DNA of 64,000 nt from Escherichia coli (lineage in GTDB: Bacteria > Pseudomonadota > Gammaproteobacteria > Enterobacterales > Enterobacteriaceae): NCBI RefSeq assembly GCF_041886205.1, contig NZ_CP169029.1; one strand, 5' to 3'. The notes under the pieces were generated by a model, which was not told where the DNA came from, ran no database searches, and saw nothing but the letters and a program-made list of their open reading frames with translations. Position numbers and translations under genes: made by a program. Within the stretch, counting starts at the first letter, position 1. Each line of letters begins with the position of its first letter. Positions 20,299-22,359 of the stretch are shown here, one piece after another.

Positions 20299-22359
20299 AT
20301 GCTACCAAAAGCCGCCCGCATTCCCCACGCCATGACGCTTCATGGCGATACGCGAATCGATAATTACTACTGGCTGCGGGACGATACGCGTTCTCAGCCG
20401 GAAGTTCTGGACTACCTGCAACAAGAAAATAGTTACGGTCATCGGGTGATGGCCTCACAACAAGCCTTGCAGGATCGCATCTTAAAGGAAATCATCGACC
20501 GCATTCCGCAACGAGAAGTTTCTGCGCCCTACATCAAAAATGGCTACCGCTATCGGCATATTTATGAACCAGGCTGTGAATATGCTATCTACCAGCGTCA
20601 ATCGGCATTCAGTGAAGAGTGGGATGAGTGGGAAACATTGCTCGATGCCAATAAGCGCGCAGCTCATAGTGAGTTTTATTCGATGGGCGGAATGGCGATT
20701 ACGCCCGATAACACCATTATGGCGCTGGCAGAAGATTTTCTTTCCCGACGCCAGTACGGCATTCGTTTTCGTAATCTGGAAACTGGTAACTGGTACCCAG
20801 AACTGCTGGATAACGTTGAACCCAGCTTTGTCTGGGCAAATGACTCCTGGACTTTCTACTATGTTCGCAAGCATCCGGTGACGCTGCTGCCTTATCAGGT
20901 CTGGCGTCACGCCATCGGTACGCCAGCATCGCAAGATAAACTGATCTACGAAGAAAAAGACGATACCTATTACGTCAGCCTGCATAAAACGACCTCGAAG
21001 CACTATGTAGTCATTCATTTGGCCAGCGCCACCACCAGTGAAGTTCGCCTGCTGGACGCGGAAATGGCCGATGCCGAGCCGTTTGTTTTTCTGCCGCGCC
21101 GCAAAGATCACGAATACAGCCTTGATCACTACCAGCATCGTTTTTATCTACGTTCCAACCGCCACGGCAAAAACTTTGGCTTATACCGTACCCGTATGCG
21201 TGATGAGCAACAGTGGGAAGAGTTAATTCCGCCACGCGAAAACATCATGCTGGAAGGGTTTACGCTGTTTACCGACTGGCTGGTGGTTGAAGAGCGTCAG
21301 CGCGGGTTAACCAGTTTGCGCCAAATTAACCGCAAGACCCGGGAAGTCATTGGTATTGCCTTTGATGATCCAGCCTATGTGACCTGGATTGCCTACAATC
21401 CAGAACCTGAAACCGCGCGATTGCGTTATGGTTATTCTTCCATGACCACACCAGACACTTTGTTTGAACTGGATATGGATACCGGTGAGCGTCGTGTATT
21501 AAAACAAACAGAAGTGCCCGGTTTTGATGCGGCGAATTACCGCAGTGAACACCTGTGGATAGTCGCCCGTGATGGCGTCGAAGTTCCGGTTTCGTTGGTC
21601 TACCATCGCAAACATTTTCGCAAAGGACACAACCCGTTGCTGGTGTATGGCTATGGTTCTTACGGCGCAAGTATTGATGCCGATTTCAGTTTTAGCCGCT
21701 TGAGTTTGTTAGATCGTGGCTTTGTCTACGCCATTGTCCATGTTCGCGGCGGTGGTGAGCTGGGGCAACAATGGTACGAAGACGGAAAATTTCTGAAGAA
21801 GAAAAATACGTTTAATGATTATCTTGATGCCTGCGATGCATTGTTAAAACTGGGCTATGGCTCTCCTTCGCTTTGTTATGCGATGGGCGGGAGTGCGGGG
21901 GGCATGTTGATGGGCGTTGCAATTAATCAACGCCCGGAATTATTCCACGGCGTTATCGCCCAGGTACCGTTTGTTGATGTTGTAACAACGATGCTTGATG
22001 AATCAATTCCTCTTACCACTGGTGAGTTTGAAGAGTGGGGTAACCCGCAGGATCCGCAATATTACGAGTACATGAAAAGCTACAGCCCGTATGACAACGT
22101 CACCGCACAGGCTTATCCGCATTTACTGGTAACGACCGGTTTGCACGATTCTCAGGTGCAATATTGGGAACCGGCAAAATGGGTCGCTAAATTGCGCGAG
22201 CTGAAAACCGATGACCATCTTTTATTGCTCTGTACCGACATGGACTCAGGCCATGGCGGTAAATCTGGTCGCTTTAAATCGTACGAAGGCGTAGCGATGG
22301 AATATGCTTTTCTGGTCGCGCTGGCGCAGGGAACATTACCCGCTACGCCTGCGGATTAA
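20299..22359 (+). CDS. ptrB: oligopeptidase B (S9 prolyl oligopeptidase family)
   Basis: 686 aa; catalytic GGSAGG serine motif. Confidence 0.95.

Follow-up and report, generated by a model that had tools for sequence, protein, structure and literature searches.

Convergent genes in prokaryotic genomes can reportedly share their stop codons in a 4-nt stop-stop overlap of the form YTAR, an arrangement that Kingsford, Delcher, and Salzberg are said to have described in 2007. Overlapping bidirectional terminators that act between convergent genes in a Rho-independent manner are likewise said to have been described by Ju, Li, and Liu in 2019, and Rho reportedly suppresses antisense transcription, a finding attributed to Peters et al. 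in 2012.

The modal length of gene overlaps is 4 bp, and the tetramers used by convergent overlaps are CTAA, TTAA, CTAG, and TTAG (Lillo & Krakauer 2007, PMC2174442). The same study counted 58 convergent overlaps in Escherichia coli and predicted an intrinsic terminator in only 20% of the genes that take part in them, and a later count arrived at 75 convergent overlapping pairs in this organism (Huvet & Stumpf 2014, PMC4161906). Transcripts terminated by Rho have been found to be trimmed back to stem-loops that lack a U-tract, and such stem-loops are also located inside downstream coding regions (Dar & Sorek 2018, PMC6061677). Antisense regulation by excludons and overlapping 3' untranslated regions is the subject of a review (Toledo-Arana & Lasa 2020, PMC7154746). 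Features of excludons are long antisense overlaps, opposed functions, and demonstrated reciprocal regulation.

Here, we analyzed two convergent junctions within a 64,000-nt window of an E. coli chromosome (NCBI RefSeq assembly GCF_041886205.1, contig NZ_CP169029.1), which runs in the orientation opposite to that of MG1655 and to which all positions below refer. At the first junction, ptrB (oligopeptidase B, 686 aa; plus strand, 20299..22359) meets exoX (exodeoxyribonuclease X, 220 aa; minus strand, 22356..23018). At the second junction, rlmA (23S rRNA m1G745 methyltransferase, 269 aa; plus strand, 42076..42885) meets mntP (Mn2+ exporter, 188 aa; minus strand, 42882..43448). Each of these coding sequences is supported by an open reading frame, by NCBIfam, and by RefSeq. 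The NCBIfam equivalog matches extend from end to end in all four products (PtrB, NF007511, 1-686/686; ExoX, NF005937, 1-219/220; RlmA, residues 1-268 against profile positions 1-271/272; MntP, 1-188/188), indicating that these are real coding genes that stand 3' end to 3' end. Together with RefSeq, these matches support the gene names given in the first-pass annotation.

The plus strand reads tgcggaTTAA at positions 22350-22359 and taTTAA at positions 42880-42885. The ptrB gene ends in GAT TAA, with its stop at 22357-22359 on the plus strand, and exoX ends in ACT TAA on the minus strand, with a stop that is the reverse complement of 22356-22358. Similarly, rlmA ends in TAT TAA (stop at 42883-42885, plus strand) and mntP ends in GGT TAA on the minus strand, its stop being the reverse complement of 42882-42884. 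As seen, the palindromic tetramer TTAA holds both stops at each junction (22356..22359 for ptrB/exoX and 42882..42885 for rlmA/mntP), providing a TAA on each strand with a displacement of 1 base. In both cases, the overlap of the coding sequences is exactly 4 nt long and is made up of the two stops plus 1 base from each final sense codon. The two 4-bp overlaps that had been pointed out at these positions were therefore confirmed by the sequence and by the open reading frames.

The same gene ends are given by RefSeq/PGAP in ECONIH4, in MG1655 (mntP, 1905688..1906254; rlmA, 1906251..1907060; exoX, 1926120..1926782; ptrB, 1926779..1928839), and in the most divergent E. coli variants sampled. Alternative upstream starts appear in the list of open reading frames for exoX (TTG at 23072; annotated start at 23018) and for mntP (ATG at 43502; annotated start at 43448). 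Since these alternatives concern the 5' ends, the 3' ends of both genes are unaffected, and because the stops are fixed by the open reading frames, no re-annotation of starts can abolish either overlap. The first-pass annotation had named a revision of stops or starts as the observation that would speak against the overlaps, and the gene ends are identical in all of these RefSeq annotations.

A total of 11 convergent pairs were verified in the 64-kb window, five of them tight and six spaced. The tight pairs are ruvC/yebB (offset of +4 nt), ptrB/exoX (-4 nt), pphA/yebW (0 nt), rlmA/mntP (-4 nt), and yoaE/pdeD (+3 nt), while the six spaced pairs have offsets of 45 to 146 nt and carry classical bidirectional terminators composed of a hairpin and a T-tract. 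The outer pairs of the window were placed from MG1655 and the open reading frames; compared to ECONIH4, the window differs in its first ~10 kb and by a 7.2-kb insertion. By our own arithmetic, the occurrence of 2 of 11 pairs at exactly -4 has a probability of about 0.002 under naive uniform spacing. This excess is explained by the stop codons themselves, because a pyrimidine followed by a TAR stop is also a TAR stop on the opposite strand, one base over; it is for this reason, with YTAR providing a stop on either strand, that -4 is known as the modal offset of convergent overlaps. When compared with the YTAR class (PMC2174442), ptrB/exoX and rlmA/mntP are alike in the sharing of stops within a tetramer, in the modal length, and in the movement of the stop codons, and no difference was observed. 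The suggestion that the overlap might be an oddity did not hold up, given that it is a standard YTAR stop-stop overlap and that three further pairs in the window are equally tight. Both junctions belong to a well-described and already known class of convergent overlap.

To follow the ptrB/exoX junction across the family, genome contigs were searched for ExoX, which yielded 80 Enterobacteriaceae loci, and both gene ends could be placed in 77 species. The junction is almost always tight in these 77 species. The offset is -4 nt in 34 of them, -19 nt in 21, 0 nt in 8, +12 nt in 3, and +3 nt and +6 nt in 2 each, and offsets of -143, -15, -14, -10, +2, +38, and +258 nt occur in one species each; the species are phylogenetically non-independent, and these counts are not counts of independent events. 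All 34 of the -4 junctions have a YTAR tetramer, with TTAA, the tetramer of both junctions described here, as the commonest (27 of 34), followed by CTAA and CTAG (3 each) and TTAG (1). Throughout the 77 species, the offset switches when point changes alter the stop tetramer. An offset of -19 accompanies an exoX end in CTGA or GTAR, and these ends also give other offsets; as CTGA and GTAR provide a sense codon in the ptrB frame, ptrB extends five codons further. The PtrB protein is conserved through the sequence ...LAQGTLPG, and the tail past that point varies in length and in sequence. Among E. coli genomes, 1656 of 5425 share an identical 40-mer around the junction, and the most divergent variants sampled keep the 4-nt overlap. 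Since the tightness is old and stable and the exact offset is not, the pattern fits a drift of stop codons at an abutting junction. Judged from these sequence comparisons, the variability of the offset argues against selection for the overlap itself. The tightness throughout the family could nevertheless reflect selection for compactness or coupling, which neutral drift alone does not require.

The rlmA/mntP junction has an offset of -4 in Escherichia, Salmonella, and Citrobacter and of +3 in Klebsiella and Raoultella. The identical 4-nt overlap, including the TTAA tetramer, was found in E. fergusonii, Citrobacter freundii, and Salmonella enterica salamae, and a 3-nt gap, accompanied by an RlmA that is five residues shorter, was found in Klebsiella michiganensis, K. 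aerogenes, and Raoultella. Within E. coli, a 62-mer around the junction, including the hairpin described below, is identical in 4545 of 5422 genomes. Upstream of rlmA lies cspC, which is very highly expressed.

Consensus scans for intrinsic terminators (a GC-rich hairpin with a U-tract behind it, no more than about 100 nt from the stop) gave none near either junction, and the total of matches in the scanned regions equaled the shuffled expectation. A 3' end had been mapped by Term-seq at MG1655 position 1906214 (minus strand) in two growth conditions and classified as primary for rlmA and antisense to mntP (Adams et al. 2021, PMC7815308, supplementary file 1). The window has the sequence of MG1655 from the rlmA stop through this mapped end, and the transferred coordinate places the steady-state 3' end of the rlmA mRNA at 42922 on the plus strand, 37 nt past the rlmA stop, inside mntP and on its antisense strand. 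This end is located 6 nt beyond a perfect 9-bp hairpin, GCGTCCAGA-gga-TCTGGACGC (42896..42916, plus strand), which was recognized as an inverted repeat and by folding and which covers the mntP codons for V-Q-I-L-W-T. The sequence past the stem is CGATGCCGATCAG; it contains no U-tract, and the terminator scan had no match there. We take the hairpin to mark the 3' end of the rlmA mRNA in E. coli without implying that it evolved to do so. Its energy does not stand out (11.7th percentile among random 100-nt segments), no compensatory changes were found in it in a seven-species alignment, and its core, CCAGA..TCTGG, follows from the MntP Q-I-L-W codons; on these grounds, the hairpin was rejected as a selected RNA element. 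Escherichia and Salmonella have the identical hairpin, Citrobacter has it with a single mismatch, and Klebsiella and Raoultella have a degraded form of it.

The published data also include a region of Rho termination at MG1655 position 1906268, with a Rho score of 10.2 and a p value of 1.3e-31 (PMC7815308, supplementary file 2), which maps to window position 42868. The downstream/upstream coverage at rlmA/mntP was 22/145 (0.15) in untreated cells and 530/342 (1.55) with bicyclomycin (PMC7815308). Therefore, bicyclomycin increases antisense read-through into mntP about 10-fold, and Rho normally removes about 85% of it. Beyond the mapped 3' end, the rlmA-sense RNA has a C-rich, G-poor stretch at 42926..43005 (plus strand; C 31%, G 15%, C/G 2.08, with a window background of 1.75 at the 95th percentile and 2.23 at the 99th percentile), whose composition makes it a plausible Rho-utilization (rut) site.

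In the opposite direction at the other junction, a published region of Rho termination for exoX-sense RNA, antisense to ptrB, is located at 21885 on the minus strand (MG1655 1927253, score 6.3, p = 3.4e-10; PMC7815308). This position is 471 nt past the exoX stop, and the exoX-sense RNA is C-rich at +401..+520 (C/G of 1.9-2.1). Of the interpretation given in the first-pass annotation, the part on antisense 3' ends within the convergent neighbor is supported by the rlmA end inside mntP and by the Rho regions at rlmA/mntP and antisense to ptrB. Directly after the exoX stop, in the last ptrB codons, folding predicted a stem-loop with a CGCAGG..CCTGCG core (22315..22359, minus strand; dG of -21.5 kcal/mol), which was also recognized as an inverted repeat, falls at the 2.3rd percentile of random 100-nt window segments and represents a candidate 3' protective structure of the exoX mRNA.

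On the mntP side, an inverted repeat forms a hairpin, CTGCCAGA..TCTGGCAG, 9 nt after the mntP stop and within the rlmA codons for C-Q-T..L-W-Q (42840..42873, minus strand). The minus-strand fold of 42840-42930 had a z score of -3.9, and the hairpin is a possible 3' stem-loop of the mntP mRNA. Its arms are kept in 7 of 7 species, but this sequence is dictated by the conserved C-Q and W-Q residues of RlmA. As a terminator of mntP, this hairpin was rejected, given that its conservation is forced by RlmA and that the Term-seq tables contain no 3' end for mntP. The tables of Adams et al. 2021 (PMC7815308) list no primary 3' ends for ptrB, exoX, or mntP and no Rho regions for ptrB-sense or mntP-sense RNA. 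The absence of ptrB-sense and mntP-sense 3' ends and Rho regions may reflect low expression in the LB and M63 media, and we infer an antisense run-on of both RNAs.

Two further tight junctions of the window behave with respect to Rho like rlmA/mntP and like exoX reading into ptrB. Term-seq placed a 3' end of the ruvC transcript 38 nt into yebB, and the Rho score is 7.8 (PMC7815308); a hairpin precedes this end. For yoaE-sense transcription into pdeD, a Rho score of 5.5 was reported (PMC7815308).

The rlmA transcript resembles the class described by Dar & Sorek (PMC6061677) in several respects: it has a precise 3' end a few nucleotides past a stable stem-loop without a U-tract, C exceeds G downstream, read-through is sensitive to bicyclomycin, and the 3' end lies in the downstream coding region. 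A difference from that class is that the mntP codons place a further constraint on the hairpin, and exonuclease trimming is something that we infer here. For ptrB, exoX, and mntP, the Term-seq tables contain no 3' end to compare with this class.

Taken as a whole, these observations are very probably best explained by two ordinary stop-sharing overlaps at which Rho and a stem-loop limit the antisense RNA. In each pair, unrelated genes stand tail to tail without a spacer, and the stop of one gene creates the stop of the other on the opposite strand, as a pyrimidine in front of a TAR stop suffices to give YTAR (here TTAA), whose two stops, one per strand, are displaced by a single base. The overlap is free in coding terms because it takes up no more than the two stops plus a single base from each final codon and because the PtrB tail is unconserved. 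From there, the offset drifts among discrete values as point mutations alter the tetramer. In the absence of an intrinsic terminator at either junction, each transcript would run past its stop and become antisense to its neighbor, and because this run-on RNA is untranslated, Rho could load on its C-rich portions and terminate transcription. For the rlmA-sense and exoX-sense run-on, termination by Rho is shown by the published bicyclomycin data. Thereafter, 3'-5' exonucleases would degrade the RNA as far as the first stable stem-loop, as suggested by the Dar & Sorek 2018 model, and the combination of Rho termination and trimming would leave a short steady-state antisense overlap, which is 37 nt for rlmA. 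If the convergent genes interfere with each other at all, Rho probably keeps the effect small, and the 4-nt overlap itself is without a demonstrated regulatory role.

Another way in which the rlmA 3' end might arise is through a collision-driven, overlapping bidirectional terminator, in which a hairpin pauses both polymerases and a head-on collision, together with release by the trailing polymerase, ends transcription with neither Rho nor a U-tract. The rlmA/mntP junction shares with these terminators (bioRxiv 10.1101/2022.10.23.513370) its convergent arrangement, a palindromic U-less hairpin nearby, and a precise 3' end. Being a perfect palindrome, the hairpin at 42896-42916 would form in both transcripts, and hundreds of convergent pairs in E. 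coli have been assigned to the class (Wang et al. 2022). Members of the Ju 2019/Wang 2022 class are usually located between genes, however, and the hairpin here lies inside a coding sequence. The class is also defined as Rho independent, whereas rlmA/mntP is strongly Rho dependent, its score of 10.2 (p = 1e-31) being among the stronger ones in the region. Of the two genes, rlmA alone has a mapped 3' end in the Term-seq tables, the collision model suits highly expressed pairs best, whereas mntP is repressed without Mn, and ptrB/exoX lacks a strong hairpin shared by its two transcripts. This reading was set aside owing to the strong Rho dependence at rlmA/mntP, and we consider it unlikely. It is somewhat harder still to accept the overlap as a selected regulatory device of the excludon or antisense-coupling type, by which expression of one gene would lower that of the other, either because RNA polymerases collide or because RNase III cleaves the 3' duplex. 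The persistence of tight junctions over long evolutionary times, the extent of identity of the rlmA/mntP 62-mer with its hairpin among E. coli genomes (4545/5422), and the about 10-fold gain in antisense read-through into mntP with bicyclomycin, which makes interference physically possible, would all be in keeping with such a device. Nevertheless, the offset is unconserved (-4, -19, 0, +3, +6, and +12), indicating that selection does not act on the overlap itself, and the partners have no functional relationship. Moreover, about 85% of the read-through is ordinarily eliminated by Rho, and three other unrelated pairs are equally tight in the same 64 kb. Both pairs share with excludons the overlap of transcripts from opposite-strand neighbors, but the long overlaps, opposed functions, and reciprocal regulation of excludons contrast with an rlmA/mntP overlap of tens of nucleotides between unrelated genes. 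Our literature search found no report of coupling, the sole paper naming both mntP and rlmA being concerned with an unrelated topic, and a transcriptional-interference dataset (PMC10349824) has no entry for these E. coli genes and only a K. aerogenes ptrB row. This reading is very unlikely.

A more specific proposal is that the hairpin at 42896-42916 was selected for dual use, encoding MntP V-Q-I-L-W-T and stabilizing the rlmA mRNA, and that the 37-nt complementarity between the rlmA and mntP 3' ends, partly fed by read-through from cspC, tunes the stability or 3' processing of the mntP mRNA. We regard this as a long shot; if true, it would link Mn export to the expression of a cold-shock or ribosome-modification gene. 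The least probable reading, with next to no chance of being correct, is that the overlap is only apparent, as would be the case if one of the stops were not a true translational end owing to a miscalled frame or a pseudogene. Nothing of weight speaks for such an annotation artifact, since the alternative starts of exoX (23072) and mntP (43502) touch the 5' ends. The stops are unambiguous, full-length equivalog matches reach the last residues, and the annotation of independent genomes and species gives identical ends; the equivalog matches and comparative data effectively refute it.

Overall, the reading of two ordinary stop-sharing overlaps whose antisense RNA is limited by Rho and a stem-loop has practical consequences for annotation and for strain construction. 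YTAR stop-stop overlaps should not be "corrected" in annotation. In engineering, a deletion of a 3' end (e.g., a Keio-type mntP knockout) could remove the stop-proximal stem-loop or the Rho site of the partner gene. Beyond such housekeeping, the significance is small, and the two junctions serve as a clean illustration of two textbook-level facts. One is that the palindromic YTAR lets convergent genes share their stops at no coding cost, so that an offset of -4 is preferred. The other is that, where the genes leave no space for a terminator between them, Rho and a stem-loop within the coding sequence of the neighbor set the 3' end of the mRNA.

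Three further convergent pairs in the 64-kb window meet practically without a spacer: ruvC/yebB (junction at 2281-2290, gap of 4 nt), pphA/yebW (26823-26828, 0 nt), and yoaE/pdeD (49105-49113, 3 nt). Since the gap between ruvC and yebB is 1 nt in MG1655 compared with 4 nt here, the offset is variable within E. coli. In published MG1655 data (Adams et al. 2021, PMC7815308), a Term-seq 3' end of ruvC lies 38 nt into yebB (Rho score 7.8), and yoaE-sense RNA has a Rho region (score 5.5) in the interior of pdeD.

In eda/purT, htpX/yebQ, and yoaH/yoaC, which are convergent pairs with a spacer, the two genes share a single hairpin. 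As seen at window positions 17029-17058 (eda/purT), 37459-37489 (htpX/yebQ), and 54643-54676 (yoaH/yoaC), these hairpins are palindromic and carry A-tracts and T-tracts on their flanks; they are intrinsic terminators of the classical bidirectional type. At the yoaH/yoaC pair, both strands have reported Term-seq ends, at MG1655 positions 1894457 and 1894498 (PMC7815308). Antisense RNAs are also encoded between pphA and yebY, where the Rfam scan identified the overlapping sRNAs SdsR (RyeB, plus strand) and RyeA (SraC, minus strand) at 25894-26038, and Term-seq ends have been reported for both (PMC7815308).

Upstream of rlmA, the Rfam cspA thermoregulator family is matched over its full length (132.9 bits) on the plus strand at 41525-41985, a stretch that spans the yobF-cspC leader and the coding region. 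This cspC gene is labelled cspE by PGAP in the annotated comparison strain ECONIH4 and cspC in MG1655. No other Term-seq signal in the region comes close to that of the cspC terminator (MG1655 1907153; PMC7815308), so read-through past this terminator may contribute to the transcription of rlmA. On the mntP side, the leader harbors an Mn2+ (yybP-ykoY) riboswitch at 43579-43675 on the minus strand, which was missed by the default scan because its Rfam score of 41.6 bits lies just below the gathering score of 45. A Rho termination region (score 3.5) has been reported in the mntP leader at MG1655 1905535, corresponding to approximately window position 43601 (PMC7815308).

Around ptrB/exoX and rlmA/mntP, the window matches ECONIH4 perfectly, but it belongs to a different strain. 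The first ~10 kb (1-10000) is K-12-like, with aspS, nudB, yebC, ruvCAB, znuCBA, mepM, and lpxM, in place of which ECONIH4 carries a sugar ABC transporter/GH13 island adjoining pykA. Between yoaC and yoaB lies a chaperone-usher fimbrial operon of ~7.2 kb (~55400-62600, all on the minus strand), encoding an usher, a chaperone, a StfH/YfcO-family adhesin, and four fimbrial subunits. Of 5426 complete E. coli genomes, just 7 contain 80% or more of this stretch, and the operon is thus a rare accessory island.

Among the ptrB/exoX loci surveyed across Enterobacteriaceae, three offsets (negative for overlap, positive for gap) were outliers. In Citrobacter amalonaticus AUH_CA_2023_1 (locus L009, +258 nt), ptrB looks truncated, which might reflect a pseudogene or an error in the assembly. 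Salmonella enterica arizonae (L034) showed +38 nt, and Intestinirhabdus alba (L031) showed -143 nt, which, if real, would represent an unusually long convergent overlap.
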